Of a stretch of DNA of 64,000 bases, positions 36,194-64,000 are shown in pieces. This stretch comes from Candidatus Latescibacterota bacterium (GTDB taxonomy: Bacteria > Latescibacterota > UBA2968 > GCA-2709665), in NCBI GenBank assembly GCA_965248435.1, contig OZ252100.1:3296001-3360000 (forward strand), read 5' to 3'. Numbering within the stretch: position 1 is the first letter of the stretch; every line of letters starts with the position of its first letter. Made by a program: the position numbers and the translations under genes. The notes beneath the pieces were generated by a model. It had not been told where the DNA came from. It worked only from the letters and a program-made list of their open reading frames with translations, and made no database searches.

Positions 36194-36964
36194 GCTGGAT
36201 TCAATGACTAAGTGCAACACTTGGACTTGAAGACTTCAGCTGGTGTTTTGAAGTTAAGACATTTTCTTGGTCGGTTGTTGATCCGGTTCTGAATTTTCTT
36301 TAACTCGTGTTTGCTGACCTTTGAGAAGTCTGTCTTCTTGGGGAGGTATCTGCGGACCAGACCGATAGCGTTTTCCACAGCGCCTCGCTCCCAGCTGTGG
36401 AACGGTTTGCAGAAATAGGATTTGGTGCCAAGCACCTCGTTGACCCGTTGATGTTGGCCGTTTTCGGATCCGTTGTCATATGTGATGCTCTTCCTCATGT
36501 GGGGAGGATGTCGCCCAAGGCGTCGATTAATCGCTTCGGCGACCTCCGAGGGTCCGTTCTTTGCCAGCTTAGCCAGGTGTAGGTATCTCGACGATCGCTC
36601 AAGACAAGCGCCAACGGCCTGTTTGCTCTCACGAGAGATGATGGTGTCGGATTCCCAGTGGCCAGGTTGTTTCCGTTTTTCGATGTAACGGGGACGTCGA
36701 TCGATCGAAATACGGCCTGGAATGTGGCTTTCCCGGTGTTTTCGGGTATGCCACCGCGGCTTTCGTTTTTTGTGAGCTCGGGATAAGCAAGCAACCAGAT
36801 CCCGCTGCTTGTGCACCTTTGGATCGTAGATATACTGGTAGATGGCTTCGTGGCTGATACCCGCGCTCGGACGCTCCTCGGGAAGCCTCCCAGCGATCAA
36901 CTCGGGAGACCATCCTTGCTTGAGTTTGGTCTCGACATATCGCCGGATAACCGGATTCTTCAGC
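36194..36964 (-). mobile_element. Truncated IS30 copy (771 bp), lacks left end and HTH-coding part
   Basis: Reverse complement matches 26782-27552 (identical translated protein); identity ends abruptly at 36964. Confidence 0.9.
36208..36964 (-). pseudogene. 5'-truncated IS30 transposase
   Basis: ORF 36208-36900 is identical to the C-terminal 230 aa of the 26555-27538 transposase. Confidence 0.85.
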
Positions 36965-36971
36965 GACGGAG

Positions 36972-39900
36972 ATGGGGTCCCTGAACCTGGCCCAGACCTT
37001 CGTGGGGACCTTCAAGGCCGAAGCCGACGTGGACCTCCAGGCAACGCTGACCGTCCCCGCCATCACGATCGACGATTTCGTCTTCGACTTTCCGTCTGTG
37101 TCGGCGATCTTCCACTACGACCAGGTCTTCGCTAACGCCAGCACGACCGGCGCCGGCAACAGTTTCGGCGGCGTTCCCGTCATCTCCTTCGAAGATGTGG
37201 AGATAGACCTCGGGGGGTTCATCACCGGGTTCGTCGGCCCGATCGTCGGCCAGATCGGCGACGTGATCGATCCGCTGCTGCCCCTCGTCCACGTGCTGAC
37301 GGACGAGATCCCCCTGCTGAAGGAGCTGGGGGCGTCGCAGACGAGCCTGATCGACATAGCCGGGACGCTCCTGGGTCAGACGAAGTACGCCGGCGTGGTG
37401 AAGGCGGTCGATGCCATCCTGGACTTCGTCCTCTTGGTAGAGAAAGTCGACGACTTCATCGACGCGTCGGGCGGCGGCCCCCTCGTGATAAGCTACGGCA
37501 GCTTTACCGTGGGCGGCGACGCCCGCAGCGGTGGCCAGGGTTCCCTCAATGTTGCCCCCCCGGCCCCGGGCACCACCCACGACCCGTCCGGCCAGTTGGA
37601 CAGTGGACCGAGCTCGACAAAGAAGGACAAGGCCAAGAGCGTCGTCAGCAGCTTCGGCACCACGAAGGGCAGCCTCCAGTTCCCGATGCTGAGCGACCCG
37701 CTTTCCGCCTTCGGTTTGCTCCTGGGCAAGTCCGTCGATCTCTTCATCTACGACCTGCCTGTCCTGAGCCTCGACTTCCAGTACGTCAAGTCCTTCCCCA
37801 TCTTCCCCGGACTCAACGCCCGTTTGGGCGGCGGAGTGTCGGCATCGACGAACTTCAGCTTCGGATTCGACACCTCCGGCTTCAACGAGTGGAAGGCTGG
37901 ATGGTCCGGGCCGGGAGGCAGCTTCCAGGCCAGCGACCTCGGCCAGCTCGGAACCGTTTTCAACGGATTCTTTCTCGACGACCACGGTATCGAGAACACC
38001 TCCGGCGATCAGCCTGAGGCGACCATCACCGCCTCGATCGTGGCCGGCGCCTCCGTGGGCATCGGCGGACTGATCGAAGCGGGAGTCGAGGGAACCATCA
38101 AGGCCACTATCGACTTCGATCTCAACGATGTGAAGAATCCCAATGCCTTCCCGGGATCAGGCATCCCCGAGTTCGACGGCAAGATCCGAGCCGAGGAGCT
38201 GATCGCGCGGGCCAACCAGGGAATCGAGTGCATCTTCGACACCCACGGGGCGCTCACCTTCGCTCTGGACGCCTTCTTCTGGGTGGGGGCCGACCTGGGA
38301 TTCCTGGGCAAGATCACGATCTTCGAAGCCCGAAAGAACTTCTTCTCCGCCACTCTGGCGGAGTTCGACCACGCCTGTCCCGACCTGGACATTCCCAAAC
38401 TGGCTCACATGAACGGCAGCGACCTGGTGCTGGACATGGACGGAGTGGTCGGACAGTCCGGATTCAGCGCGCTCGAAGACGACGATGGCAATCGGATCGG
38501 CGAGAGCTACAAGGTGGGGGTGCTGCAGCTACCGACGGATGTTGTCGTCGATGCGGACGGGCAGATCACGGACGGCGGCACTCTGGACGGCCCGATGGAA
38601 GACTTCGTCACGGTAGGCGCCCGCGGGTTCCTGAATTTCTTCAGGGCCAGCGGTGTGGACAGCGTCAGCACCACGGCAACGGCCTACGCCGACGAGATCC
38701 AGGTCGCAAGCAACGTCCAGGCAAATTTGAACCTGCACGGCGGTTCCGGTGACGATCACATAATGATCGACTCGGACGGCACACACTCCGTGGCCATCTT
38801 CGGTGACGACGACGACGACATACTGATCGGTGGCGCGTTCGCCGACACGATCGAGGGGGGTGCCGGAAAGGACAAGATCTACGGCCTCGGCGGAAACGAT
38901 ATCCTGAGGGGCGACGCCGGTCTGGATATCATCGTGGGCGGTCAGGGCAACGACGAGCTGCACGGTGGCAGCGGCGACGACCGGCTGGCCGGAGAAGAGG
39001 GCGCAGACAAGCTGTTTGGAGACGCCGGCGCCGATACCCTCACGGGTGGAAAGGGTGTTGATGAGGGCCGGGGAGGCACGGGAGGCGATACCTTCGTCTG
39101 GACATTCGGTGACGGCGCCGACTCGGTCTGGATCGGCGGTAATAGCACGGCGACGAACCCAGATGACCAAATCGAGTCACAGGAGCCCGATACGGCCCGG
39201 CTGATCGGGATCGTGCTCGACGAGAACATGCAGACGGTTCCGGTAGACGACACCGTCGGCCTTTCAGCCAACAGCGTCGACGTAGATGTCAGTTGGGGAC
39301 GTCCCGGGACCTCGACGAACGTCTACACACTCCAGGGGTTCGAGCGGGTGACGCTGGATTTGGCCGACGGGGCTGATGCCGTGACGATCGGGAATCTGGA
39401 CGGGACGACGGTGGGGAACGTCGACGTCGACTTCGGCGAGACCCAGCGGGAAGAGACCGCCGTAGTCGATATGGTAATCCGCGACGCGAGCGGCAATTTC
39501 GTCGACTTCATCTACGATCCCCGCGATCTGGATGCGAATGGCGACCCCAAGACCGTCCATGAGGTACTCGATGCGAATGGCGACCCTGTTCTTGATGTGA
39601 ATGGTGATCCGACATTCGAAACGAGAGCTGCGCGGATCCTGACGGAAGTGATCAAGACAACGCTGAAGGGCACTGACGGCCAGGCAGATACGCTGCTGCT
39701 GCTGGGGTCTTCCGGAGTGGATACGTTCGAGCTGACGGCAGCGGACGCCAATGCATTGGGGATCGACCAGTTCGTCGACCGGCCCGGCGGCGCCACGGGT
39801 GATCGTGTGCTGAGCATCCAGCTGGAGAACAGCGAGAGCGGGTTCGACCGGCTCGATATCCAGACACTGGGGGACGGCGACCGTGTGGATGCATCCGATG

Positions 39901-41045
39901 TCGTCGTGCGCCACCTGATCGTCCTCGGGATCGACACGGGGGCCGGTAACGACACGGTGATCGGCTCCTCCTTTGTTGACCACATCAATACGGGCGCCGA
40001 CGACGATACGGTCACGGGAGGTCCCGGGGTGGATCAGTTCGCCGATTCGGGCGGGGATGACACGCTGGTGGAGTCGCGGGACGTCCACTTCGACCTGAGC
40101 GATATCGAGCTGTCGATCCACACGAAGGCGGACAGCTACGGGATCAACAACACCCAGGTTACGTCGGGGACGCCGATCACGGAGAAAGAGAATATCGCCG
40201 GGCCCGGGTTGAACGGCGCGGGCGGTGGGATCTTCGAGACGATCCGGCTGACGGGCTACGACGATACTCGCGGGCTGGAGGGCGCGCTGAGCGAGAACAC
40301 CTTCACCGTGGACGATTTCACGATGACCGCGTTCCTGAACGGCGGCCCGGCCGACGACTTCTACGACATCATCCTCAGCGGCGGTGCGGCGGCACAGTTC
40401 AGTTCGGTGGTCTACATCTCCGACGACGGCGGCAAGGGGTTGGCCCACCTGCCGCAGGGCGCCGGCCTGGACACGCTGAATGTCGAAGGCACTGCAGTTG
40501 ACGATACGTTCGCGTTCGCGCCGCAACTGGTGGAGCGGTTGACGACGGCCGACGTTTCGCCCGGGGACGCCGGCTTCACGCCGATCACCGATTTCGGCAA
40601 TATCAGCACCGACCCGGTCGTTCGGTCGTTTGCGGCCGGTCCGGACGTGAGTCGGCAGACGGTGATCTACGGTGAGGGTATCGTGGAGGCGTTCGAGGTC
40701 CACGGCGGGTTCGGCGACGACATCTTCATCGTGGACGACAGCAGCACCGAGCTGTTCGTGTTCGGCGACAGCGGCGACGACGCCTTCTTCATCGGCAGTG
40801 TGACCGCCACGACGACGATCACCAATCCCGAGGATCCTCTGGGCCCCGGGATTCTGGTGGTTGACCGGACAAGCGGAGGGAGGCGGTATCACCAACGGCG
40901 TATCGTTCCCTGCGGAGTTCCGCGGAGGCAAGGGCAACGACTATTTCGAGGTGAACCACAACATCGCCGAGATTTCCTTGTACGGAGAGGACGGCGACGA
41001 CGTCTTCTTCCTGAAGGCGCATCTCACGACCGAGCCGGCCGATAA
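36972..41045 (+). CDS. Giant RTX-like calcium-binding repeat protein, fragment 1 (5'-truncated; frame lost at about 40865)
   Basis: GGxGxD nonapeptide repeats (about 38730-39130), Asp/Gly-rich; begins mid-domain at the IS30 junction; last about 55 aa are off-frame. Confidence 0.8.
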   Translation: MGSLNLAQTFVGTFKAEADVDLQATLTVPAITIDDFVFDFPSVSAIFHYDQVFANASTTGAGNSFGGVPVISFEDVEIDLGGFITGFVGPIVGQIGDVIDPLLPLVHVLTDEIPLLKELGASQTSLIDIAGTLLGQTKYAGVVKAVDAILDFVLLVEKVDDFIDASGGGPLVISYGSFTVGGDARSGGQGSLNVAPPAPGTTHDPSGQLDSGPSSTKKDKAKSVVSSFGTTKGSLQFPMLSDPLSAFGLLLGKSVDLFIYDLPVLSLDFQYVKSFPIFPGLNARLGGGVSASTNFSFGFDTSGFNEWKAGWSGPGGSFQASDLGQLGTVFNGFFLDDHGIENTSGDQPEATITASIVAGASVGIGGLIEAGVEGTIKATIDFDLNDVKNPNAFPGSGIPEFDGKIRAEELIARANQGIECIFDTHGALTFALDAFFWVGADLGFLGKITIFEARKNFFSATLAEFDHACPDLDIPKLAHMNGSDLVLDMDGVVGQSGFSALEDDDGNRIGESYKVGVLQLPTDVVVDADGQITDGGTLDGPMEDFVTVGARGFLNFFRASGVDSVSTTATAYADEIQVASNVQANLNLHGGSGDDHIMIDSDGTHSVAIFGDDDDDILIGGAFADTIEGGAGKDKIYGLGGNDILRGDAGLDIIVGGQGNDELHGGSGDDRLAGEEGADKLFGDAGADTLTGGKGVDEGRGGTGGDTFVWTFGDGADSVWIGGNSTATNPDDQIESQEPDTARLIGIVLDENMQTVPVDDTVGLSANSVDVDVSWGRPGTSTNVYTLQGFERVTLDLADGADAVTIGNLDGTTVGNVDVDFGETQREETAVVDMVIRDASGNFVDFIYDPRDLDANGDPKTVHEVLDANGDPVLDVNGDPTFETRAARILTEVIKTTLKGTDGQADTLLLLGSSGVDTFELTAADANALGIDQFVDRPGGATGDRVLSIQLENSESGFDRLDIQTLGDGDRVDASDVVVRHLIVLGIDTGAGNDTVIGSSFVDHINTGADDDTVTGGPGVDQFADSGGDDTLVESRDVHFDLSDIELSIHTKADSYGINNTQVTSGTPITEKENIAGPGLNGAGGGIFETIRLTGYDDTRGLEGALSENTFTVDDFTMTAFLNGGPADDFYDIILSGGAAAQFSSVVYISDDGGKGLAHLPQGAGLDTLNVEGTAVDDTFAFAPQLVERLTTADVSPGDAGFTPITDFGNISTDPVVRSFAAGPDVSRQTVIYGEGIVEAFEVHGGFGDDIFIVDDSSTELFVFGDSGDDAFFIGSVTATTTITNPEDPLGPGILVVDRTSGGRRYHQRRIVPCGVPRRQGQRLFRGEPQHRRDFLVRRGRRRRLLPEGASHDRAGR

Positions 41046-44000
41046 CGATGATTTGCAGCCGCAGGAAGACATCGATGTCTTCAGCGAAGAGGGCGAGCGC
41101 GACGTCCTGGCCTACGTGAACAACGCGCCCGTGAACATTCACGGCGGGGCCGGCTTCGACACGCTGGTGATCGTGGGGACGTCGATAAGCGATACATTCA
41201 CCATCTTCGTCGAAGAGGTGAACGGCATCGAGGTCCAGCGCATCTTCGGCGCGGGTCTGACGGTCCCCAACATTACCGGCATCGAGCGGCTGCTGATCGT
41301 GGCGGGCGGCGGCGACGACATTATTAATGTATATGGCACGCTTGCAGACCAGGAGATCTCCGTTAACACGGGTGGCGGCAACGACACGGTCTTCCTGGGC
41401 GGCAACGAGATCAACTTCGACATCACGATCCCCGAGTCGAAGTATACGAAGGTCGAGACGGTCGAACGTCCCAACATCGTGATTCCGAACCCTCCGATCA
41501 TCATCCCCGGATTTCCCTATTACTCCACTCATTATTACTTCAGCTTCAACTTCTTCGGCAGACGGTCCTGGTCCTACAGGATCTGGCATTGGGCGCCGGC
41601 CATCGTTATCCCGATACCGGATACGATTATCCCGCAGGAACCTCTGGAGATCCCGCGGGTCGTCACGGTTCCCGAGTTCACTCTGCCGGTCTTTGTTCCA
41701 GAAACGCGCCAGCTCGTGGGTCTGCAGGGCCCGGTTTTTGTCGACGGCCAGGACACGGGGCCGATCCTTAATCCTGACGGTACTGTACTTCTCAGTGCGG
41801 GCGATGACACCCTCGTTGTGGACAACCGCTACGGCACACCACAGGCCCCGGGCTCCCTCGTGAAGATCGAGGTGGAGGTCGCCAAGATCAATCAGGTGGA
41901 TCCAGTAGATCTGGCCGAGGAGCTGGAAGCGGAGCTTGGCTTTGCGCCGACGCAGGCCCAGATCGACACCCGGGAGACGCAGCGGATCGCCGACGTGGCG
42001 AGCGCCAAGGCCATCCTGGCCGTGACCGCGCCCGCGGGCGTGGACGAAGAGACGGTCTACGGGCAGGTGGTGGACCATCTGCAGGACCAGAACCGGGTGC
42101 GCCAGCCGGGTATCCTGGACGCGATGGTGGCGGCCCCTGCCGGAACGACTGCAGTCACCCTGACCGACAGCGCGAAGATCGCCGACCATACTACGACCAA
42201 CGCCTTCGTCAGCGATCTGAGCGCTGAGTTCAGCACCAACGTGTCGCAGGGGAAGTGGGTCGACGCGTCCGACGAAGCCAACCCTCAGGATATCTTTTTC
42301 AACATCACGGCTTCATACATCAACACCTATCACCTGTTGTTCCCGAATGGCGTGTTCTCCTTCACCGCCGGCGGCCGCAACCTGGAAGCCGAGGTGATAT
42401 CGGATCTCGGCGGGAATATCATCCAGATCAACGTCTACACCGTCGACAAAGTCACGTTCGATCTGGGCAACGATTTCGTGAAGTCGAAGTTCGTGGACGA
42501 CGAATCCACTCGGACCTACGACACGATTTCGGGCTTCGGTTCAACGTTCGGAGTGTTTTACCAGAACTTCACGGCGGTGGACGTCCAGCTCTCCAGCCAG
42601 GTAGACGTACTGGAAGTGATCGACACGGCCGGGACAGATCAGAAGCCGACAGTAACCCGCATCTTCGCCGGCGGCGGCGGCGACACAGTGAACGTCCGTG
42701 CGGCCGGCGGCACGACGAACATTTTCGGGGACGTGAGCCCGACCTACAACGAGGACTTCCGGGTACACGCCGGGTCGACGACCCCCGCTCACCTGAAGAG
42801 CGCGCAGAATGCCGTCACGCTGGGCAACTTGCTCGGCCTGGGCGCCACCTTCGATCACGAGAACTCCACGCACGTGCGTGCGGTTGCGCAGCAGCTCCTC
42901 AACCGCGGCGTTTCGCTCGTGGATCTGGACGGCAGCGCGATTACGCTTACCAGCGACATCACCGACGTGGTCAATTTCGACTCGGACGCCTACCACGCAC
43001 AGATCTGGATCCTGTTGAAGGCCCACCTGAACGATCTGCAGGGAAACACCGGAAGCTACAAGGACTTCCTGGATGACCTCGGACCCTTCGGGTCGGAGTT
43101 CTCCACGAACCTGGCCACGCTGGTGTCCGGGTTCAACGCCACGGACGTCAGCAACCTGGACGTCGGGGACCTGAAGGCGCTGGCCACGGCGGTGAACAAC
43201 AAGGGCTACACGACGACGGTGTCGATCAAGACGGCGTCGACGGTGGGCCAGTTGAACAACTCGCTGGACGCATTCGCCGACGAGGTCTGGGATACGCTGA
43301 AAGACCTGACAACCAACGCCTCGCCGTTCGTCGCGACCACGGGCGACTGGCGGAGCCATCTGGCTTCCGTGGGAAGTGCTCTGGGCATCAGCGGGTCGTT
43401 CAATACATCGAGCCTGAGCCATCTGCAGACCCTGGCGAAGGAGGTCAACTCCCGTCAGTTCCAGGCGACCGTATCGATCGACACGTCCGATGAGTCGACG
43501 ACGTCGGCGACCTTCGACCGGTTGGATACCGACCTGGAGTTCACGTTCCAGACCTTCGTCTGGAGGTTGCTGAAGGAGAACCTGATCCACACCGGCGGAT
43601 CAGCCTACAACCCACTGGCTGATGTGGAGCAGGTTCCCAACGAATATCGTAACTACCTCCTCCAGCTGAACGCGGCACTCGGGCAGAGCGGGACGTTCAA
43701 TCCGAACAGCGTGATCCACCTGAAGACGCTGGGAACCGCGCTGAACAACGAGTTCCCCGCTCTGCAGATCGACGTTGCCGGCATCCAGCTGGTGCCGAGC
43801 CTGGACGTGAACGCCTATCGGGCAGAGGTTTGGGATTATCTGACTGCGAATGGCGTAGCGACGCCCACGGGCAACGACACGTTCAACATTCACAGCACCG
43901 CCAACCGGGTAGACGGCATCCAGGCAAACCTGACGCTGGACGGCCAGACGTCATCGGGCGACCTCGTGTTCGTGTCTCACACAGGAGACGGGAGCGATAA

Positions 44001-47547: not shown

Positions 47548-47647
47548 TGAGGACGATCAGGTCGACCTTCTCACCATCGCCAACGACGGCAGCAGCCGCG
47601 ACGACGATGACGGGCTGCTGACGGCTCACCGGCTCACCGGACTGGGG

Positions 47648-56600: not shown

Positions 56601-59600
56601 GTTTCGTGGACTTCACGCGGGCGGATCGCGGGCTGGGCGGCGACGCAGATGCGACGGACATCGATCTGATCGAGAGCACGTCCACGACCGCCAACGGGGG
56701 TGTCGACTTCATCGACACCGGAGCGGGGAACGACCTGGTGATCGGCGGGCGGTTCGGTGATGACATCGAGGCACGTGCGGGCGACAACGTGGTGATCGGT
56801 GACAGCGGCCGGATCGTGTCGGCTGTGGCGGATCTGCCGCGATTGACGGATCACCTGTTCACGTTAGGGTTGGTCGAGACGATCGCGTTCGACGACAGCG
56901 GGGCGGATACGATTACTACAGGGTCCGGTCACAGTATTGTGATGGGTGGTGTGGGCGTTGACTCTCTGAGTTCCGGAAACGGCAGCCACAATATCATTTT
57001 CGGAGACAACGGGTTCGTGGACTTCGCGCAGGATGGCGATCTCTCGACGGTCGACGTGGCCTACACGATCGATCACAGTTCGGGTGACGCGGACATCATC
57101 ATCTCGGGCGACGGGAACGACATCATCTTCGGCGGTGCATTCGGTGACACGATCTGGGCCGGCGCCGGAAACGACCTCGTCCTTGGCGACTTCGGTCGGC
57201 TCGATTCGGCGGCAGGATCGATCGATGCTTCGCAGCTGCCTCTGTCGATGCCGGTCGGGACGCATCCATTCACCTTTACCTCCACCGACACGCAGAATGC
57301 CGCGGCGGGCGATGATCTGATCTTCGGCGAAGAAGGCGAAGACATCCTGCTCGGCCAGCAGGGGTCCGACACGATTTATGGAGGTGCCGATGATGACGAT
57401 ATCATCGGCGGCCACAATGTGTCTCTCGGTCATGACGGTGCCGACCGCCTGGACGGCGGCTCGGGCGACGACGTGATTGCGGGCGACAACGCGAGCATCC
57501 TGCGCAGGGGGGATTCGCTGGACCCGCGGATCCGCGTCCTGTCCGGGACCGAGATCTACGGCGAGACGCTGCCTGATGACGCCCGTGCCCTCGTCACCCC
57601 GGATTCTCAGGTGAACCCGAGGGGCACTGCGTCCAGACAGATCGAGATTCTGGATCACGCCGACGACACGGATCCGAGTCTGTTCGGCGGTGACTACATC
57701 GCCGGCGGGGCGGATGACGACCTTATCTTCGGCCAGCTCGGTGACGACATCGTTCAGGGCGACGGCTCGATCGACCTGAACGGCAACGGCCTGGTCGACC
57801 TGGACGGCTCGGACGCCGGGGTCGTGGATGTGAATGCGGCGAGGCTGGGAGACGGCACGCTGGCCGTCAGGCCTTCAGTAGAATCGGCGAGCGACGGCGA
57901 CGACTACATCGAGGGCGGCGGGGGTGACGACACCGTCTTCGGGAACCTCGGCCAGGACGACATTATCGGAGGCAGCTCGACCCTGTTTGGGCTGGATACG
58001 CCCGCGGAGCGCCCCGACGGCTCGGACCTGATCTTCGGGGGCGCGGCGACGGACATCGGTCGGAACGACACGGGCGACACATCGAGTCAAGGACACGCCA
58101 GGGATTCCGACGCGATCGCGGGCGATAACGCGAACCTCCTACTCCTTGTGGGGACCGGAACCATCCATTCTGGGGCTTTCCTTGAGTTCAATTACGACCA
58201 GACCTCGGCTTTCGAGGATCGCGGGACATTGCGGATCGTCCCGCGGGCGATCCAGTACGTGGACTATACGCCCGGCGGCGCTGACTTTGATGCGGCGTCG
58301 GCGGCCGGTGACATCGGCGCAGCGGACGAGGTGCACGGTGAGTCTGGTGACGACTTCATCTACGGGTTCGTCGGAAACGACATCCTGTTCGGCGACGGGC
58401 AGGACGACGACATCGTCGGCGGCTACGGGCACGACTGGATCTCCGGAGGTACGGGGCAGGACGGCGTTCTGGGCGACGACGGCCGGATCTACACGCAGCG
58501 CAACAGCTCGTCCGAGGGCGAGCCGCTTTACGGTCTGGGTCCGGTGCAGGTGAATTCGAGCATCGACACGCCGGGCAACTGGCAGCAGGCCGACATCTAC
58601 CCGTCCGGCGAACTGCTGAAGTCGGTCAACCTGGCGCCGTTCTCCCTGGGCGCGGATCCACAGCAAGCCGACGACATCATCTTCGGCGGCTGGGGCAGCG
58701 ACTTTCTACACGCCGGGGACGGCGACGACGCCGTGTCGGGCGCGGAGGCCCTGGAAGAGTTCTTCGATGCTCCGGAGAACGCCGGAAACGTTCTGCGCTA
58801 CGGCGAAGACCGGGCGGGCGAGTTCGCCGCTTACGACGAGTTCAACCCGCGGCACTTGATCCAGGTGGACGAGACCGGCGCCTTTATCGAGGTCGGCAGC
58901 GGCGACACCGGTTCGAACTTCATCCTGAACTTTGATGCCCAAGAGGCGCCAACGGGATCCACGGGCATCGCCGACGACGGCGCCGACTTCATCTTTGGCG
59001 ACCTGGGCAACGACTGGCTGGTCGGCGGGTCGGGCAAAGATCGGATCTTCGGAGGCATGGGCGACGACCTGATGAACGTCGATGACGACCACGGAACCAA
59101 CGGCGGCCTGAACGATGCGCCGGATACGGATCCGAGCTACGAAGATATCGCCTACGGCGGCGGCGGCCGGGACGTGCTGATCGGCAACACCGGGGGCGAC
59201 AGGCTGATCGATTGGGCTGGCGAGTTCAACAGCTACATCGTGCCCTTCGCGCCGTTCGGGTTGGGCACGGTAAGCCGGGCTCCAGCGCCGCACATCCAGC
59301 AATATCTGTACGACCTGTCAGAGGCGTCCGGCGCCGATCAGACCCGCGCGGCGGATACTGGAAGTGCGGAGTCCAGAAACGGCGAGCCGGAAGGCGAGAT
59401 CGGCCTCGTGAACCAGCAGGACTTCGCGTGGCGCGATCAGACCGGAGCGCCCGACGATCCGCAGCCGGGTAACATCCCGGGCGGGCCCAGGGACGTGCTT
59501 CGTAGCGCCGATTTCAACTCCGGCCAGGCCGAGGGGTTCGCGCCCGACAGCGGCACGTGGTCGATCGAGAGCGGAAGACTGCGCGTGGATCCCGAGAGTC

Positions 59601-61054
59601 AAAGCTCAGACGCGGTCAGCGTGTTCAATCTGGTCGAGGTGGATTCGCTGCCCAGCTACTTCGAGATTCAGGCAACGATCAACGCCGTAAAGCCGACTGG
59701 CGGGTGGAAGGCCAACGCCTACGTCATCTTCGACTATTACAGCCCGACCGACTTCAAATTCGCGGGCGTCAACATCTCGAACGACAAGATCGAGATGGGC
59801 AACGTGGACGCGTCAGGCTGGCACGTCGAAGAAACCGACAACGCCCAGCTGAAGCCCGATAAGGACTACAACGTCCTGCTGTCGGTGCTGGGCACAACGG
59901 TGACGCTGGTGATCGACAACTCCGAGGTGTTTTCACACGTGTTCGCACCCCGGGTGATCGACGGATTCAGCTACAGTATAAACGCCGGAATGATCGGGAT
60001 CGGCGCCCACGAAGCGCGGGCACGGATCGACAACGTGGCGGCCCAGGTCCTGCCGCCTGAGATCACGCTGGAGACGACGGACGAGTTCTCGGGTGGCTCG
60101 ACCGACTTCCTGGGTGGAGACGCTACGGGCTCGTGGCAGATCAACGGCCAACGCTTCGAAGGGACGCCTGCCTCCGGTGACGATATTGCGATCAGCTTGG
60201 TCGACCTTCCGGAGCTCGAAGATGGCGGGTTGGAGACGGCCTCGATGCTGGAGATGGAGGCGACGGTCAGCACGCAGGGCGCCGGCGGCTTCGTCTTTGA
60301 CTACTACAGCCCGACCGACTTCAAATTCGTCGCAATCACCGACGGAGCAGTGCAGATTGGCCATCACACGAACCGCGGCGGACTGAAGATCGACGCCACT
60401 GCCGATTGGGACATCAATCCGGGCGATGACTACGATCTCTTCCTGGAGATGAAGGGCACGCAAGTCAGCGTGTCAGTGGACGGGCAGGTGGTGACGGGCT
60501 TCGTCTTCAACGCTCTGTCAGTGGACGGCCGATTCGGCGTGATCTCCATCGGTGGCGAGTCGTCCTATGACGAGGTGACCGTCCGGACGGACGACCCGGC
60601 CTTCGAGGCCTTCGAGCCACCTGCATCAAAACCGGTCGTTGTTCCTGCCCACCTGGTGACGTCTTACCTGCAGCTGGATCCTTCAGTGCCGTTCGCACGG
60701 GTCGTGAGCGACGGGCACACGAACGGATTCAGCGGAGTCCGGATCGACGGGTTCCTGTTCGAGCCGGAAGGGGAAGACCGGACCGACGGCAAAAGGGTGA
60801 TCGGCAGCCTGTTCCAGAGCCGTCCCGATCTGTTCTCGCCGGCCCTGCAGGACATCTTTGCCGGGGACGAAACCGAAGAGGATTCAGTCGACCCGGTCGA
60901 CTTGGAGGCTGTTCTGGCGGGACAGGACGGCTGGACGAATGTACCTGGAGAGGCTGACGAAGGTCGTGTGGAGCGCGCCGGATTTGAAGCGCTTCTGGAG
61001 CGGGGCGCGCAGAGTCGTTTCCTGCGCTGGGACGAACTTTCGGCGGAGGAATAG
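47648..61054 (+). CDS. Giant RTX-like repeat protein, fragment 3 (C-terminal; frame open from 47543)
   Basis: Dozens of GG.D.I..G.G.D.V.GG..GD.I.AG.G.N.V.GD.G units, RTX-like repeats, two lectin-like C-terminal domains. Confidence 0.85.
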   Translation: MGAGYIDYIEFEHFNMTMGSGSETLTIESTHAGATNIDAADGGDTFNVETISGHTTLELGTGADEVNVSNDAGTVDSIGALLTVSGDAGGDTINILDGGEAGDNLGTLTESTLIGLDMTAEADVNHVQTITVDPLGGDFTVQMIDQTTGQAFVQLEDVDDELVPVLDANGNPIDSVTLAADATEEEIRIALQEFLGGFLTVVFNGVPLSAFTENVNVRRFGDVIVVRLEGAFRGAEGQNVRFVSADTHVQIATRNEGINYYGIETLNLDLGSGDDRLNIQGTSAVTNVDAGAGDDLIYVSSGANLGLLGTYAAADGSLENLHDAVLHGDRLDPVSGDLFQAGGTLDFVSGDLNIDAGAGENTLSLSDRHDPDADTAVTVTDSSITGLADGDITYGATTGSFSGQGTWAQSGDWGLFGIGISVYAGSGNNTIDITSVSDSGIVNAPFSRTVTQVFAGGGSDTVNVAVTESLGRYLVVQGEAGNDTIDASLSTVPVVLFGNEGGDTLTGGPMSDLLFGDSGRITFIRPTSAGPGLDVVLGAPADASDLAGLSFDDDSSTADLFVSVLGDSDNVDRIIAAGGNDVVVGGGNDGADINDLLDVEEIDAGEGDNTVLGDSGLIHLVNALLTEIRSFDAADGGRDDITAGSGFDVVIGGAGADKLTAGEGSNIIVGDSGRAVLTANQLELVESIEPAVGGSDTITTGTGSDYIIGGADGDVITTNDGLKVIVGDGGRVVLDGTDIALVETISPGVGGVDTITTMGTTARNIAIGGALGDLITLSNGDNTVVGDDGRAVFQGGILTLVESIVTVDANGLVQTGGVDTITGGAGPDNIIGGQAGDIIQAGNGRNIVMGDSGRFLYELDGDLSLAETDFSSDGGIDDIDSGSGNDVLLGGAAGDLLDAAGGDNVVLGDSGRITFLDGIVDDVASVDEGVGGVDYIDTSGTGRDVIVGGAAGDFINTGDGQKVVLGDSGVIDLVPTVVNGEQAIVSVASTAQGVGGVDRITTSGTTFRNIVIGGAFGDFITVGNGENTVLGDEGRAVFLNNILSIVESIVTLDGNNVPIQNGGVDEITGGEGADNIIGGQAADTILAGNGRNIVMGDSGSFTYEVDGDLAIAETVHSADGGVDTITSGTGSDVLLGGAVGDMLEAGEGDNVVLGDSGRITFLDGIVDDVVSVDEGIGGQDDIDTTGTGRDVIVGGADDDTIHTGDGQKVILGDSGSIDLDPFVMNGEQDLISIRTTAPGVGGVDTITSGAGTNTILGGPDGDIINAGSLGDNVVLGDNGEAFWVNGILDLIRSTDEGDGGIDVIIAGSGADKIIGGQDADQIVAGAGDNFVIGDSGELDFDAAGILATARTTAPGIGGVDDITTGPDDDVLFGGASGDTIGAGDGHNVVFGDEGIATFTGGILLRIESVVTLDAGGVTQTGGIDTITTGAGRDDVVGGQAGDVITVSDGENVVLGDSGVLDYVGGVLVFADTTEPGDGGVDVITSGVDRDVVFGGTAGDTINANAGDNVLVGDDGEVTFTAAGALDLIESTEFSDGDVDTITSLGGADHIIGGHEGDIIDAGDGWNVVAGDSARVDYEAGTLVRIETLASLIGGVDTIMTGLGSDVVLGGIGGDLITVNVGETAAQPDSSNVVVGDSGSIDYTSDDADASDIDEILSTETGDGGSDTITTGAGSDIVIGGAAGDVIVAGAGDNVVFGDSARILAATQDLSTTLPITAGLLETITPGVGGIDQITTLGGRDIVLGGHEGDTINAGEGDNIVLGDDGRIDTVRGERSPLDDGADTDASDIDLIESTSTTAAGGIDIITTGAGNDLMIGGRFGDTITAGAGDNLVVGDSARMTSASADAPQLLGLSITFGLVETIAFGDGGVDIITTLFGRDILFGGHEGDVINAGEGANIVVGDDGLIDYVRGERSAVGTPGADLDASDIDLIQSTSTIAAGGVDVIDTGVNDDIVFGGRFGDTLRAGEGRNLVFGDSGQITAANLGTPQYAGHALTFGLLETIEPSDGGVDAITSGSGTDIALGGHDGDTINAGEGDNLVVGDDGFVDFTRADRGLGGDADAADIDLIESTSTTFNGGVDVINTGAGNDLVIGGRLGDTITSGAGDNVVIGDSGRIVSAVADLPRLTDHLFTLGLVETIAFDDGGIDLITVLGGMDVVLGGDEGDTIDAGEGANVVLGDDGSVDYDLDGNPADIDEITSLSTTLGGGADVIDTGSGSDVVIGGRFADDIEARAGDNVVIGDSGRIVSAVADAPQLVGLPMTLGLIETIAFGDGGVDIISTLTGRDIVLGGDEGDTIDAGEGDNVVLGDDGLVDYDLDGNPADIDEITSLSTTLGGGADFIDTGSGSDVVIGGRFADNIEARAGDNVVIGDSGRIVSAVSDALQQLSGLSMTLGLIETIAFGDGGVDIITTLFGRDIVFGGHEGDVINAGDGANIVVGDDGLIDYVRGERSAVGTPGADLDASDIDLIQSTSTIAAGGVDVIDTGVDDDIVLGGRFGDTLRVGEGRNLVFGDSGQITAANAGAPQYAGHVVTFGLLETIEPSDGGADMITSGSGTDIALGGQDGDTIDAGEGDNLVVGDDGFVDFTRADRSLGGDADASDIDLIESTSTTLNGGVDIIDTGAGNDLVIGGRLGDTIRSGAGDNVVIGDSGRIVSAVADLPRLTDHLFTLGLVETTAFDDGGIDTITTLGGRDVVLGGDEGDTIDAGEGANVVLGDDGSVNYDLDGNPADIDEITSLSTTLGGGADVIDTGSGSDVVIGGRFADDIEARAGDNLVIGDSGRIVSAVSDALQQLSGLPMTLGLIETIAFGDGGVDIITTLTGRDIVFGGHEGDAVDAGDGANIVVGDDGLIDYVRGERAAAGTPGADLDASDIDLIQSTSTTAAGGVDVIDTGAGNDIVFGGRFGDTLRAGEGRNLVFGDSGQITAANTGAPQYAGHVLTFGLLETVEASDGGADTITSGSGTDIALGGHDGDTINAGEGDNLVVGDDGFVDFTRADRGLGGDADATDIDLIESTSTTANGGVDFIDTGAGNDLVIGGRFGDDIEARAGDNVVIGDSGRIVSAVADLPRLTDHLFTLGLVETIAFDDSGADTITTGSGHSIVMGGVGVDSLSSGNGSHNIIFGDNGFVDFAQDGDLSTVDVAYTIDHSSGDADIIISGDGNDIIFGGAFGDTIWAGAGNDLVLGDFGRLDSAAGSIDASQLPLSMPVGTHPFTFTSTDTQNAAAGDDLIFGEEGEDILLGQQGSDTIYGGADDDDIIGGHNVSLGHDGADRLDGGSGDDVIAGDNASILRRGDSLDPRIRVLSGTEIYGETLPDDARALVTPDSQVNPRGTASRQIEILDHADDTDPSLFGGDYIAGGADDDLIFGQLGDDIVQGDGSIDLNGNGLVDLDGSDAGVVDVNAARLGDGTLAVRPSVESASDGDDYIEGGGGDDTVFGNLGQDDIIGGSSTLFGLDTPAERPDGSDLIFGGAATDIGRNDTGDTSSQGHARDSDAIAGDNANLLLLVGTGTIHSGAFLEFNYDQTSAFEDRGTLRIVPRAIQYVDYTPGGADFDAASAAGDIGAADEVHGESGDDFIYGFVGNDILFGDGQDDDIVGGYGHDWISGGTGQDGVLGDDGRIYTQRNSSSEGEPLYGLGPVQVNSSIDTPGNWQQADIYPSGELLKSVNLAPFSLGADPQQADDIIFGGWGSDFLHAGDGDDAVSGAEALEEFFDAPENAGNVLRYGEDRAGEFAAYDEFNPRHLIQVDETGAFIEVGSGDTGSNFILNFDAQEAPTGSTGIADDGADFIFGDLGNDWLVGGSGKDRIFGGMGDDLMNVDDDHGTNGGLNDAPDTDPSYEDIAYGGGGRDVLIGNTGGDRLIDWAGEFNSYIVPFAPFGLGTVSRAPAPHIQQYLYDLSEASGADQTRAADTGSAESRNGEPEGEIGLVNQQDFAWRDQTGAPDDPQPGNIPGGPRDVLRSADFNSGQAEGFAPDSGTWSIESGRLRVDPESQSSDAVSVFNLVEVDSLPSYFEIQATINAVKPTGGWKANAYVIFDYYSPTDFKFAGVNISNDKIEMGNVDASGWHVEETDNAQLKPDKDYNVLLSVLGTTVTLVIDNSEVFSHVFAPRVIDGFSYSINAGMIGIGAHEARARIDNVAAQVLPPEITLETTDEFSGGSTDFLGGDATGSWQINGQRFEGTPASGDDIAISLVDLPELEDGGLETASMLEMEATVSTQGAGGFVFDYYSPTDFKFVAITDGAVQIGHHTNRGGLKIDATADWDINPGDDYDLFLEMKGTQVSVSVDGQVVTGFVFNALSVDGRFGVISIGGESSYDEVTVRTDDPAFEAFEPPASKPVVVPAHLVTSYLQLDPSVPFARVVSDGHTNGFSGVRIDGFLFEPEGEDRTDGKRVIGSLFQSRPDLFSPALQDIFAGDETEEDSVDPVDLEAVLAGQDGWTNVPGEADEGRVERAGFEALLERGAQSRFLRWDELSAEE
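53200..56900 (+). repeat. Near-identical intragenic repeat modules (several hundred bp) in the giant gene
   Basis: Recurring blocks such as GERSAVGTPGADLDASDIDLIQSTST, DLPRLTDHLFTLGLVET and YDLDGNPADIDEITSLSTTLGGG, each in about three copies. Confidence 0.85.
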
Positions 61055-61096
61055 CGTCTCGATTCGTTAAGCATCTCACTGAAGCGGCAGAGTTCG

Positions 61097-61140
61097 GAAG
61101 CCGTGCCGTTTGCCGGTTAGGAACGGAACGGCTTCTTTTT
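61097..61140 (+). terminator. Intrinsic terminator after giant gene
   Basis: gaagccgt.ccgtt / aacgg.acggcttc stem plus TTTTT. Confidence 0.75.
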
Positions 61141-61177
61141 GCCTGAATGGCTGGAGCGTGAAAGGTATAAATGGGTG

Positions 61178-61207
61178 TTGACTTGACGGGGTATGGCTGA
61201 TTATATT
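61178..61207 (+). promoter_or_regulatory. Putative sigma70 promoter of DUF3467-adaptor operon
   Basis: TTGACT-18 nt-TATATT. Confidence 0.45.
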
Positions 61208-61297
61208 GGGACCCTGTCGGGTGGCAGAATCTCTTGTTGCAGAGCAGAATAGACATTCCAGACCCTGTTTCGGGTCCATTACGTGAAAGGAGTTTCG

Positions 61298-61663
61298 ATG
61301 GCGAAGGCAAGCACTGCAGGAGCGCAGCAGGCCCAGTCTGAGGCCGGAGACGGAGGGCGAACGCAGGTGCGCGTGCGATGGGACGACTCGAACATGTCCA
61401 CCACCTACGCCAACGTTTGCAACGTGTCCAGCACTCGGGAAGAGGTTACGCTACTTTTCGGTACCAACCAGACGTGGCACACGGGACAGAACGAAGTCGT
61501 GGTCAATCTGTCGGACCGGATTATTCTGAATCCCTTCGCCGCGAAGCGACTATCGATGCTCTTGAACAACGTGGTCACAGAGTACGAGAAACGCTTCGGG
61601 GAACTGGGAATCGAAACGGCAACCGGTGCTCCCGGCGAGGCGCCGAAGCCGGCTGGAAGCTGA
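61298..61663 (+). CDS. DUF3467-like small protein
   Basis: WDDSNMSTTYANVCNVSSTREEVTLLFG...RIILNPFAAKRL...YEKRFG.L pattern; AAAGGAG RBS. Confidence 0.8.
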   Translation: MAKASTAGAQQAQSEAGDGGRTQVRVRWDDSNMSTTYANVCNVSSTREEVTLLFGTNQTWHTGQNEVVVNLSDRIILNPFAAKRLSMLLNNVVTEYEKRFGELGIETATGAPGEAPKPAGS

Positions 61664-61791
61664 AACGGATTGCGAATCACGAACTAGCGTCTCTCTTGGG
61701 AACGGCCCTCTTCATTCGGTCTACCCCGGGTCGGACGCTATTCGTTTTCCAGGATCAATTCTATAGACCAGGATGAAAGGCGAAATCTTCG

Positions 61792-63643
61792 TTGCCTTCT
61801 GAAACCACCCAGCAACTGGAGCAGCCGGCTTCGACATCGCTCCTCTGGACCCGCTTCGCCAACGCCAAGACGGCGTCGGAGTACCACGGCGCGTGGCTCG
61901 GTCTCCTGTGCGGTATCATTTCCGAAGCCCGACTTGGGGTACTGGTCCTTATGAGCGATGCTGGAAGATTCGAGCCTGTGGCCCAGTGGCCTCCGGATCG
62001 ACCGGATGCCCAGAAGCTGGCCGAGATCCTTGACCGGGTGGTGGACGAGAAGACGGGCCTGATCTCGGAGCTGGAGGCGAGCCCGGACACAGCGGCTACC
62101 TATGCCATCGGCTACCCGATTCAGGTGGACGAGGTGCTTTGCGGCGCCGTGGCGCTTGAGGTGCACGCGACCACCACAGAAGGCCTTCGCGGCGCCATGC
62201 AGCAGCTTCAGTGGGGCGTGGGCTGGGTGGAGCTGCGAGTGCGCAGGGATGGGTGACGTGGAAAGCTCTGAGGCGCTCAAACGGCTTCGGGGGAGCGTGG
62301 ACCTGCTGGCGTGCGTGTTTTCGGAGGAGCGGTTCGATTCGGCCTGCATGGCCTTTGTCGCGGAGCTGGCTAACCAGATGCAGTGCGATCGGGCGAGCAT
62401 CGGGTTCGTGAGAGACCGTCAGGTTCGGGTGCGGGCGGTTTCCTACAGTACGGACTTCGGCGAGCGGATGAATCTGAACCGCGCACTGGCTGGCGCGATG
62501 GAAGAGGCCGTGGTTCAGCGTCAGGCCATTAAATACCCGGCCGTCGACAAGGATTCCGCGCTCGTTGTTCGCGAACACGACCTCCTGGCGCGGCAGCACG
62601 GCGTCGAGTCGATTCTCACGGTTCCTCTCTACCACAACGACCGCTACTACGCGGCCATTACGTTGGAGCGTCCGAAGCAGCGCCCCTTTATTGAGGATGA
62701 CGAGGCCTTCTGCCACAGCGTGGCCGGGCTGGCCGGTCCCGCGCTGGAGGGCCGGCGCCTGGAAGACCGCCCGCTTCCGCTCAAGCTGAAGGACGCGCTT
62801 TCGGGGCAGGTCCGTAGGTTGATCGGTCCGGGTCACGTCGGGCGGAAGCTTGTCTTGGGCGTCCTGTTTATCTTGTCGATCTTTTTCGCCTTCGCGCAGG
62901 GCGACTACCGGATTTCGGCCGATTCCACGCTGGAGGGAGCGGTGCGGCGGGTCGTCGTCGCGCCGTTCGACGGGTTCGTGTCGGAGGCCCCGATGCGAGC
63001 CGGTGACGTGGTGAACGCGGGCGACGTGATCTGCCGGCTGGACGATCGCGATCTCCGGTTGGAGCGGATGCGGTGGCTGGGACAGGTGACCCAGCTGCGT
63101 CGGCAGCTTCAAGAGGCATCCGCCGGGCACGACCGGGCTCAGGCGAGCATCCTGTCCGCTCAGCTCGAGCAGTCTCAGGCGCAGCTGGAGCTGTCGGACG
63201 CCCAGCTGGAACGAACGCAGCTCCGTGCGGCGTTCGACGGATTGGTGGTCAGCGGCGATCTCTCCCAGCGCCTGGGGGGGGCCGTACAGCAGGGCGAAGT
63301 GCTGTTCGAGGTGACCCCTCTGGACGCATATCGGGTATTGCTGGAGGTGGACGAGGGTCGGATCGCGGACGTGGAGGCGGGCCAGACAGGAACGCTTGTG
63401 CTGTCGTCGCTTCCGGAATCTACGTTCGACTTCCGTGTGGAAAAGGTGACACCGATTGCAACTCCAGAAGAAGGAAAGAATACGTTCCGGGTGGAGGCGG
63501 CACTGGACCGCACCGAATCTTCCCTGCGGCCGGGGATGGAAGGCATCGGGAAGATCCACGTGGACCGCCGACTCCTGATCGGGATCTGGACGCGGGACCT
63601 CAGAGACTGGGTGAGGTTGACGTGGTGGGAGTACGTTTCGTAA
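61792..63643 (+). pseudogene. GAF-domain HlyD-family membrane fusion (periplasmic adaptor) protein, frameshifted at about 62250
   Basis: ORFs 61792-62256 and 62102-63643 join into GAF-like+GAF (AMEEAV.Q), TM helix, VVAPFDG lipoyl half-motifs, coiled coil and LRPGMEG.GKI beta-barrel end. Confidence 0.8.
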
Positions 63644-63657
63644 ATCGTCGATCGTAA

Positions 63658-63850
63658 AGACCGGGTACCGGGATAGGTAGATAGGTTACAGAGACCTGAC
63701 GGTTTGGGGGCGACGCCTGCGTCGCCCCGAGAAATCAAAACACGGGTACCGGGGTTCGGGCAACGGGTACCGTAGCAATTGCGGGTTGCGGATTTGGGAA
63801 TGAAAAAGCTGGATCACGAAAGGACACGAAGGAGCACGAAGGACACGAAG
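63658..63850 (+). repeat. Dispersed GGGTACCG-core intergenic repeat, copy C, with CACGAA tandem units
   Basis: aaaacacgggtaccggg...gggtaccgtagcaattgcgggttgcggatt...ggatcacgaaaggacacgaaggagcacgaaggacacgaa. Confidence 0.7.
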
Positions 63851-63951
63851 CCCCTTCCTGAGAAGCTGGATCAGGGGACATCGTGAAAGCAATGGGGCGT
63901 CACGGTCCCCCGAATGGCAAAAACGCGGAATAGAGGATGACGCACGGCTAA

Positions 63952-64000
63952 ATGGAAGAACAACTGACGAGTAGCTCGTGGTACCGCGTGGCAGAGACGA
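63952..64000 (+). CDS. Partial CDS (MEEQLTSSSWYRVAET...), probable M50 peptidase/HlyD-type fusion protein
   Basis: The S.SWYRVA N-terminal motif is one I recall from PqqD-like/M50/adaptor fusions next to GAF-HlyD genes; only 16 codons visible. Confidence 0.5.
   Translation, partial: MEEQLTSSSWYRVAET

Follow-up and report, generated by a model that had tools for sequence, protein, structure and literature searches.

ABC-driven type I secretion is the only understood route by which proteins of 5,000 to more than 10,000 residues cross two membranes. Its giant-adhesin type is, as we take it, represented by LapBCE–LapA, and the C-terminal signals of type I substrates are poorly conserved. A locus of another kind is already in print; in the main text of their 2015 PLoS One paper (PMC4452313), Kamneva, Poudel and Ward describe a conserved locus, present in several phyla, that combines a secondary SecA_DEAD protein with three HlyD proteins. 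There the SecA is without wing/scaffold, one HlyD protein is M50-like, one bears a GAF domain and one is small, and a gene for an outer membrane efflux protein (OEP) is sometimes adjacent. The same text notes the missing ABC transporter, proposes SecA as the ATPase and the M50 protein as a possible pore, states that SecA cannot itself form a pore, reports only weak expression in Methylobacterium extorquens, whose strain AM1 it names, and takes the patchy distribution to suggest horizontal transfer; supplements aside, the words DUF3467, giant, adhesin, RTX and cargo are absent from it. Here we describe a locus of this kind, together with the remains of a giant gene beside it, in a stretch of 64,000 nucleotides (hereafter the window) from a Candidatus Latescibacterota bacterium (GenBank assembly GCA_965248435.1, contig OZ252100.1, positions 3,296,001 to 3,360,000). 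We consider it probable that the locus is a horizontally acquired, decaying copy of the module of Kamneva et al. with a broken RTX giant cargo gene, and that its intact form would be an ABC-less, SecA-driven exporter.

The genes of the module stand in the following order: DUF3467; a GAF-HlyD adaptor; a fusion of a RiPP recognition element (RRE; RiPP, ribosomally synthesized and post-translationally modified peptide) with an M50-like domain and a HlyD adaptor (M50-HlyD below); an insert of three genes, for a 561-aa protein, a Big_1 lipoprotein and TolC; a SecA paralog (SecA2 below); and a small HlyD protein (Table 1). A second SecA_DEAD protein without SecA_SW, three co-located HlyD proteins and no ABC gene in the locus are what characterize the published module, and all are found here. 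Component by component (GAF-HlyD, M50-HlyD, wing/scaffold-less SecA, small HlyD/biotin-lipoyl protein) the two loci agree; measured against the published main text, ours differs in adjoining a giant LEPR-XLL/RTX gene, in being partly pseudogenised and in carrying the three insert genes between M50-HlyD and SecA2. With the type I secretion system HlyB-HlyD-TolC the locus shares a TolC recognized by TIGR01844, adaptors of the MexA/MacA/HlyD fold, a giant, cysteine-poor, Asp/Gly-rich RTX cargo and an operon-like linkage, and through its RTX-type cargo the module is connected with the kind of substrate that type I systems typically handle. It departs from that system in having no ABC transporter, three different adaptors, a SecA-type ATPase and a putative leader-binding membrane metalloprotease; moreover, relatives of the cargo bear a conserved N-terminal tag and may not rely on a C-terminal signal, and the adaptors fall below the cut-off of the type I HlyD adaptor model TIGR01843 (42.8 bits versus 208.65).

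Table 1. Features of the locus and of the separated cargo fragment. Coordinates are those of the window; values above 64000 are extrapolated window coordinates, and L001 coordinates equal window coordinates minus 61000. ORF, open reading frame; IS, insertion sequence; TM, transmembrane segment; HMM, hidden Markov model.
Feature	Coordinates	Strand	Remarks
Truncated IS copy, HTH_38 + rve transposase	36194–36964	−	771 bp; abuts the giant remnant; without the first 284 bp of the element
Giant remnant, piece 1	36965–41045	+	ORF 36972–41045, 1,357 aa; real coding to ~40871; 5′ truncated; RTX repeats
Giant remnant, piece 2	40861–47547	+	2,228-aa ORF; frame +1 versus piece 1; end is a 2-bp deletion relative to the X5 contig
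Giant remnant, piece 3	47648–61054	+	4,468 aa; long RTX-type arrays, then two jelly-roll-like repeats and a non-conserved tail
DUF3467 protein	61283–61663	+	126 aa; PF11950, 86.7 bits vs cut-off 25, 1.1e-24
GAF-(GAF)-TM-HlyD adaptor gene	61792–63643	+	ORFs 61792–62256 and 62102–63643; frameshift between 62247 and 62261
RRE(PqqD-like)-M50-like-HlyD fusion	63952–64000, on to 66099 (= L001:2952–5099)	+	715 aa; apparently intact
561-aa protein	66118–67803	+	No family (profile scans)
Big_1/invasin-D3 lipoprotein-like gene	67787–69168	+	Frameshifted near 68640–68650
TolC	69503–70900	+	TIGR01844, 289.1 bits vs 225.15
Truncated SecA paralog	70914–72902	+	662 aa; SecA_DEAD 1.4e-104
Small third HlyD adaptor	72908–73633	+	241 aa; HMM 313.8 bits, HlyD_D23 4.4e-18; end of the high-GC island
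LEPR-XLL/RTX fragment	G000:C1:2839994–2848609 (= L095:7991–16609)	−	2,872 aa; ~0.49 Mb from the window remnant, opposite strand

The RTX, Pfam and NCBIfam domain calls given here come from profile-library scans of ORF translations, with ORFs called under translation table 11. An earlier note on this DNA, made from the letters of the window, had seen no ABC gene and had pointed beyond position 64,000, where a metallopeptidase, more adaptors, TolC, a SecA paralog or an ABC ATPase might be sought. The extension bears out its expectations; we found a metallopeptidase-type motif pair in M50-HlyD (HEFGH, residues 210–214, and a conserved NPLLRFD), a further adaptor, TolC and a SecA paralog, and no ABC ATPase. 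An HlyB-type ABC transporter directly downstream, which that note had named as evidence against its own reading, is not there. In the island no ABC, RND or MFS pump was detected, all ORFs from 61 to 74 kb being accounted for, and there were no ABC matches inside C1:3332965–3369633. Genome-wide, the best score against the PrtD model was 236 bits (cut-off 510.15) and against the HlyB model 424.7 bits (cut-off 725.55). A pair of generic ABC exporter genes at C1:2860056–2863441 (minus strand), separated by about 11.5 kb from where the LEPR-XLL fragment discussed below starts, scores 334.8 and 371.6 bits with the HlyB model; no ABC exporter is closer to either half of the cargo gene, but the pair lies outside the high-GC DNA and is probably unrelated.

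The ATPase that stands in for the ABC motor is most likely the truncated SecA paralog. It matches SecA_DEAD, SecA_PP_bind and P-loop_SecA and keeps the Walker A, DEAD and TNMAGRGTDI motifs; SecA_SW, the wing/scaffold domain, had no match in the Pfam scan. Aligned with the genome's canonical SecA (1,075 aa; C1:4029117–4031147), the paralog follows it only to residue 817, so that the last ~258 residues, comprising the wing/scaffold end and the SecB-binding tail, are missing. The ends of SecA2, M50-HlyD and TolC are all flush with those of their homologues. All three models for accessory SecA2 (TIGR04397, TIGR04221 and TIGR03714) stayed below their cut-offs, for example at 609.3 versus 1085. As in Gram-positive and mycobacterial accessory SecA2 systems, we see a specialised second SecA beside the housekeeping SecA, with a small substrate set; unlike them, the protein here has 662 residues and no wing/scaffold end, resides in a diderm host and is tied to adaptors and TolC, not to SecY2 or SecYEG. 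Another parallel comes from the giant proteins of Omnitrophota and Actinobacteria that, according to the accessible text of West-Roberts et al. (10.1101/2023.11.21.568195), contain embedded SecA_DEAD and preprotein-binding domains without scaffold or wing. Common to those giants, as that text presents them, and to our locus is a truncated SecA-type motor tied to giant-protein export; there SecA lies inside the giant, with a type II/IV-like neighbour, whereas here a separate 662-aa motor belongs to a TolC/HlyD module.

The second unusual component is the fusion protein, whose gene starts at 63952 with MEEQLTSSSWYRVAE, the S.SWYRVA start of the earlier note. In a structural model its N-terminal domain (residues 24–97) consists of three strands (24–31, 34–41 and 46–50) followed by three helices (52–59, 67–81 and 85–97), and a fold comparison with VIA matched this domain to TbiB1 bound to its leader peptide (5v1u; Z 9.7, rmsd (root-mean-square deviation) 2.7, 83 of 84 residues), to the lasso B1 protein 6jx3 (Z 9.5) and to PqqD (5sxy; Z 8.7), which identifies it as an RRE fold. 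There follows a polytopic domain with at least four strong hydrophobic segments, in which HEFGH and NPLLRFDAYY lie within model helices, and none of the 26 family members varies at H210, E211, H214 or D312. An HExxH motif with a downstream Asp motif is what we take to define the M50/site-2 protease family. Among the same members, PF02163 (M50) was found in all 26 at E ≤ 0.01 (best 2.3e-07) and PqqD in 17. The C-terminal part is an adaptor by fold (MexA, Z 14.0; HlyD, Z 9.9; MacA, Foldseek 8e-10), and it was the only part of the fusion matched in a sequence search of the PDB. With the daptide intramembrane metalloprotease family NF041824 (152.8 bits versus 300; 1.4e-44; profile positions 1–362 of 379) the fusion has in common an N-terminal three-strand, three-helix RRE fold, as in PqqD and lasso B1, followed by a polytopic HExxH domain. 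It differs in scoring half the equivalog cut-off, in its fused C-terminal periplasmic adaptor and in its neighbours, which are secretion parts and a giant, not RiPP enzymes; by this score it is a homologue of the family and not a member.

Two further machine genes lie inside the window. Behind the giant stretch there is indeed a DUF3467 gene, as the earlier note had it. For its product a β3-α core is modelled (pLDDT, the predicted local distance difference test, 69.7; alignment of 24 sequences); Foldseek returned no PDB match at E ≤ 0.001, and a wide VIA search reached at best Z 4.2, below the noise level of the tool, with COMM, Pur-alpha and PC4-type β-β-β-α units, SecB not being among the matches listed. 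A chaperone role for DUF3467, offered by the earlier note and looked at here as a likeness to SecB, is conjectural, these fold matches being weak. The adaptor with GAF-like domains that the same note proposed is recognizable, but its gene is frameshifted. The 513-aa ORF holds a GAF domain (79–214; 2.2e-10), a hydrophobic segment (246–264) and HlyD_3 (2.4e-21)/HlyD_D23, and four of four single-ORF homologues (619–645 aa) match 61825/61843–62247 and then continue at 62261/62276–63640 in the next frame. The genes for DUF3467, M50-HlyD, TolC, SecA2 and the small adaptor look intact.

How widespread is this arrangement, and how did it come to be here? The GC content of the island is 0.59–0.65 versus 0.566 for the genome, and returns to the genome level after ~73.6 kb. 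Among 21 genomes from the same family no M50-HlyD fusion was found; across the phylum 4 of 168 have one, this genome included, and the sole copy examined from the same class (genome G157) is 32% identical to ours. The best database relatives reach 54–61% identity, and among them are several metagenome-assembled genomes labelled deltaproteobacterial or Desulfobacterota. Composition, sparse distribution in the phylum and relatives elsewhere together lead us to regard the island as horizontally acquired.

At least 597 GTDB species-representative genomes have stretches that match the M50-HlyD patterns, and the locus counts in this text refer to the best 80 of these. SecA2 lies directly 3′ of M50-HlyD in 77 of the 80, with the three misses at contig or locus ends, and GAF-HlyD precedes M50-HlyD in 72; both halves of our broken adaptor match one ORF in 54 of 54 loci. 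A BLAST search for the third adaptor with the HlyD parts of the two large ones gave a single weak match in the 80 loci; it came to light with the Pfam scan and an HMM. Behind SecA2 the small adaptor is present in 56 of the 62 loci with enough downstream DNA, or in 24 of 26 when counted by Pfam, where the other two have SapC and FTHFS; in one locus a SapC-family gene (L067:9730–10518) takes the place of the small adaptor. Homologues of the 561-aa protein and the Big_1 gene (L001:5118–8168) were seen in 0 of 80 other loci. The look-alikes of the 561-aa protein are unnamed clusters, the only named ones (PagL, OMP barrel) scoring 0.81, which we mention as a lead only.

Giant genes recur beside the module. 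Flanks of 9 kb or more on either side are available for 33 loci, of which 25 contain an ORF that reaches 1,500 aa (or 1,000 aa where the locus end truncates it), versus 29 of 300 control windows; the control consists of random 22-kb windows of this genome alone, and the loci are mutually related. When the threshold is raised to 2,400 aa, our own count is 12 of 33 versus 2 of 300. The earlier note had regarded a lack of such co-occurrence as fatal to its idea, and the co-occurrence is there. At nine visible N-termini of these giants a LEPR-type motif stands behind a basic stretch.

In our locus the giant is represented by 24,090 nt of continuous coding-looking DNA (36965–61054, plus strand) that encode 12.0% Asp, 15.4% Gly and 2 Cys in 7,992 residues. 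What had been described as a single Asp/Gly-rich gene of more than 24 kb keeps its length, composition and orientation (it is co-oriented with the downstream genes), but it comprises three ORFs in three frames (0, 1 and 2), and its 5′ end is cut by an IS. RTX nonapeptide (HemolysinCabind) matches were found in piece 1 (5.2e-19) and in 11 stretches of piece 3 (2e-63), and none in piece 2 (40861–47547) in the same scan; internal repeat families are extensive from ~49.5 kb onward. The stretch is what is left of a cysteine-poor RTX-repeat cargo gene of the neighbouring module. At its far end, residues 3774–4340 of piece 3, a C-terminal domain, recur in the giants of 4 of 80 loci (L047, L077, L093 and L094, the last from Marinobacterium mangrovicola DSM 27697; 41–54% identity), and the last ~130 residues are common to the giants of none. 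The motif DYYSPTDFKF marks two domain copies in this C-terminal part (59691–59762 and 60258–60329). At the near end, piece 1 enters a profile of seven homologues at position 266 of 405 and hence begins mid-domain; in relatives the region homologous to its start sits 350 to ~3,000 residues from the N-terminus. The N-terminal LEPR-XLL motif (NF012209) is not found in the window remnant, which has no N-terminus.

The missing head of the giant gene is probably a 2,872-aa fragment elsewhere on the chromosome. Its start gives the only NF012209 match above cut-off in the genome (37.1 bits versus 17), and three of five scanned relatives (P0127, P0130 and P0147) have the same motif at residues 13–51, at 27–28 bits. 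The fragment carries DUF4347 and nine RTX stretches, an architecture also seen in P0127 and P0130, and its GC content of 0.639 is island-like when compared with 0.566 for the genome. Over its residues ~1800–2600 (L095:8024–11800, minus strand) lie repeats of ~47 residues, ANLQAVGLxGDGSSTD(A/D)xI...DGLKTDRDxxN, which have no Pfam match and are distinct from the RTX arrays. A search with the last 303 residues of the fragment against 1.84 billion representatives returned eight proteins. In one of them, P0196 (1,916 aa), fragment residues 978–1790 match 16–775 at 46% identity and the fragment end (2610–2862) matches 783–1057; 477 residues later, residues 12–220 of piece 1 match 1535–1736, and the profile that spans the start of piece 1 matches 1254–1656 (2.7e-109). 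P0200 has the fragment end and the start of piece 1 in the same order. Because P0196 and P0200 hold both parts in order, we read the fragment and the window pieces as head and body of one gene, formerly of ~11,300 codons by our own sum, from which ~470 codons were deleted together with 284 bp of the IS. The genome retains no intact LEPR-XLL protein.

The IS offers an account of how head and body came apart. The window remnant (36194–36964) is 100% identical to positions 582–1352 of a query built on the copy at 26555–27538, and it ends exactly where the giant stretch starts (36964|36965). In the 5.67-Mb genome we counted 31 full-length copies (~1,055 bp, 98.7–100% identical) and 3 partial ones; the family has expanded recently in this genome. 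One full-length copy occupies 26498–27552 of the window, and two genomic copies bound the split giant gene. The 3′ end of the distant fragment runs into a full IS copy (C1:2838973–2840031), with an unrelated gene beyond it, and on the chromosome this copy is inverted with respect to the window remnant, yet the two point the same way when each is viewed against the gene part that it adjoins. Insertion of a single IS into the gene, followed by recombination with another copy that separated the flanks and inverted ~0.49 Mb, would be expected to produce this geometry. A check of the inversion by gene order gave no matches in five relatives for the gene left of the distant IS, and paralog-level matches only for the kinase by the window remnant.

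Sequencing data from four sources bear on the breaks; X1 and X3 are two runs of the same sample, X5 derives from another organism and X6 is a metagenome from a hydrothermal vent. The X1 and X3 contigs (16,092 letters each), which contain the IS junction, cover 36935–49000 with no differences, no gaps and single-copy depth, the IS unitigs being about thirty times deeper. Since these contigs are identical across that interval, the junction and both frameshifts of the giant gene are not assembler products; the two runs are probably the data behind the assembly. At the first frameshift the X6 contig has one base fewer, at 40871, within the overlap of open frames at 40804–41045, and at the second the X5 contig (~93% identical over 3.6 kb) has an extra GC behind 47542, within the overlap at 47486–47547; either change would keep the frame. 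The remaining X5 indels shown inside the giant gene cancel or sum to three. The weight of this evidence lies in the placement of the changes inside short frame overlaps. Altogether, four frameshifts fall in one island of ~37 kb, two in the giant gene, one in the GAF-HlyD adaptor and one in the Big_1 lipoprotein gene; among 23 flanking ORFs scanned no split gene was noticed, in a scan that was not a systematic test. The cargo gene was struck by an IS and then split, and the system is decaying in this genome. From the series of IS, inversion, deletion and frameshifts in cargo and adaptors we take the island to be dispensable here, and the strain to be ill suited to bench work.

What, then, would the intact module do? 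We propose that a basic N-terminal leader ending in LEPR-XLL would be bound by the cytoplasmic RRE domain of M50-HlyD, and that the SecA paralog, with its intact ATPase motifs and preprotein cross-linking domain, would drive the unfolded chain forward, N-terminus first. An inner-membrane assembly of the M50 domain with the adaptors' membrane anchors would line the passage, the M50 site would clip the leader, and the three adaptors would bridge to TolC; calcium-driven folding of RTX repeats outside would pull the chain out and stop it from sliding back, and the GAF domains may gate the process. The M50 protein may thus be a leader peptidase and perhaps also part of the membrane passage. The earlier note had instead suggested that the site-2-protease-like protein might replace the ABC transporter, a role for which we consider the truncated SecA paralog, with its ATPase motifs kept, the likelier candidate. 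Of its further idea, a type I-like machine dedicated to giant adhesins, the ABC-less apparatus associated with giants survives; the LEPR-XLL tag on the cargo relatives and the RRE on the M50 protein indicate N-terminal rather than type I-style C-terminal recognition. Whether the intact module amounts to a distinct ABC-less secretion pathway of diderms, in which a wing-less SecA threads cysteine-free giants N-terminus first, their LEPR-XLL leader being read by an RRE and removed by a site-2 protease, through a conduit of three adaptors and TolC, is a question on which we find ourselves evenly divided.

A number of observations weigh against this picture. Leader binding, cleavage, direction of transport and the type of inner-membrane passage are all inferred. 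In the fusion itself PF02163 scores 19.1 bits versus a cut-off of 27.2, and full-length fold lists, which filled with adaptor and RRE matches, contain no solved site-2 protease. TolC lies within 10 kb in 4 of 80 loci; no giant ORF appears in 8 of the 33 fully flanked loci, and the control for giants is the single-genome one given above. DUF3467 is encoded in 26 of the 54 loci with enough upstream DNA and, being absent from about half of them, is an accessory and not a core part. As to the history of the cargo gene, the ~265 profile positions that precede the start of piece 1 were matched by the fragment's end neither with BLAST nor with the seven-homologue profile; head and body are not contiguous, with ~470 residues missing, and they could be remnants of two similar genes. 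The X5 and X6 contigs that restore the frames both have a depth below 5, each being weak alone, and support from reads extends to the two frameshifts of the giant gene, those in the adaptor and lipoprotein genes being seen in the assembled sequence.

The main rival is a two-step route, in which the giant would be driven by the SecA paralog into the housekeeping SecYEG channel, the M50 protein is a dedicated leader peptidase in the membrane, and adaptors and TolC export a periplasmic intermediate, the module having no channel of its own. We think it unlikely, while granting that the main text of PMC4452313 holds SecA to be unable to form a pore itself and that, apart from the M50 domain with its hydrophobic segments, the module has no obvious polytopic transporter. 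The SecA paralog also retains the preprotein cross-linking domain and the ATPase core, and the accessory SecA2 models score high, though below their cut-offs; yet this same protein is without the last ~258 residues of canonical SecA. That missing C-terminal part presumably holds the elements that insert into SecY. Furthermore, in alignments the LEPR-XLL leader is basic and polar, unlike a hydrophobic Sec signal, and the strict coupling of SecA2 to M50-HlyD (77 of 80 loci) suggests a direct partnership between the two. Another possibility, which we rate as quite improbable, is an ordinary type I cargo with a C-terminal signal and an ABC transporter encoded elsewhere, for which the module would serve in processing, regulation or anchoring. 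RTX repeats are the hallmark of type I substrates, our TolC passes the type I model TIGR01844, and generic ABC exporters exist in the genome, one pair being that near the LEPR-XLL fragment; however, none of the genome's ABC exporters attains the PrtD or HlyB cut-offs and the island has none. Of the 80 loci, only 4 have giants that share the cargo's C-terminal region, and none has a giant that shares its last ~130 residues; what is found again beside giants is the module rather than an ABC gene.

Very improbable, in our view, is a RiPP-like function, in which fusion, adaptors and TolC would mature and export a small leader peptide, as daptide-type proteases do, with the giant as a bystander. 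Its appeal is that the daptide metalloprotease family is the closest named family of the fusion and that the RRE fold resembles the leader binders of lasso peptides and PqqD, but the score is half of the family cut-off, neither a small precursor gene nor a modifying enzyme was seen in the island, and giants recur beside the module with leader-like LEPR motifs at their visible N-termini. We give the least credence of all to the notion that the system still functions in this genome, its frame changes being read through (by programmed frameshifting or population heterogeneity) or its pieces acting as separate secreted proteins. Every piece is a long open frame, and five of the machine genes look intact, as said; nevertheless, a leader is missing from pieces 2 and 3, the start of piece 1 falls mid-domain next to the truncated IS, relatives are continuous in frame at both sites (X6 at the first, X5 at the second), no variant is seen at the frameshift sites in the contigs of X1 and X3, and four frameshifts have accumulated in an island whose 23 flanking ORFs, in that non-systematic scan, gave no sign of any.

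To return to the ABC-less, SecA-driven exporter, its interest, if the proposal is true, would be that a leader guides a machine in which parts of Sec, of RiPP processing and of type I secretion are combined, and loss of the cargo followed by decay of the adaptors would be natural evidence of a functional tie between machine and cargo. The module would then be an apparently widespread second route for very large proteins, its parts being taken from Sec, RiPP leader recognition and tripartite pumps. The earlier note knew of no mechanistic characterisation, and a literature search by part names likewise found no experimental study of the module, of DUF3467 or of LEPR-XLL, nor did the accessible portion of a 2021 Chem Rev article (PMC8277102) yield a relevant M50 or SecA passage; the module as such, and the idea of SecA as ATPase and M50 as pore, are however in print in the main text of PMC4452313. 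With the core module already published, the value of the window is confirmatory and not one of discovery. What it contributes is a cargo of RTX type, a variant order of genes in which TolC lies within the operon, and a decay whose history can be followed; it offers no mechanistic proof. Lastly, relatives of the giant gene with continuous frames are present in X5 and X6, with which the window shares 0.24 and 0.06 of its words, respectively, and these relatives could be a source of an intact version of the cargo.

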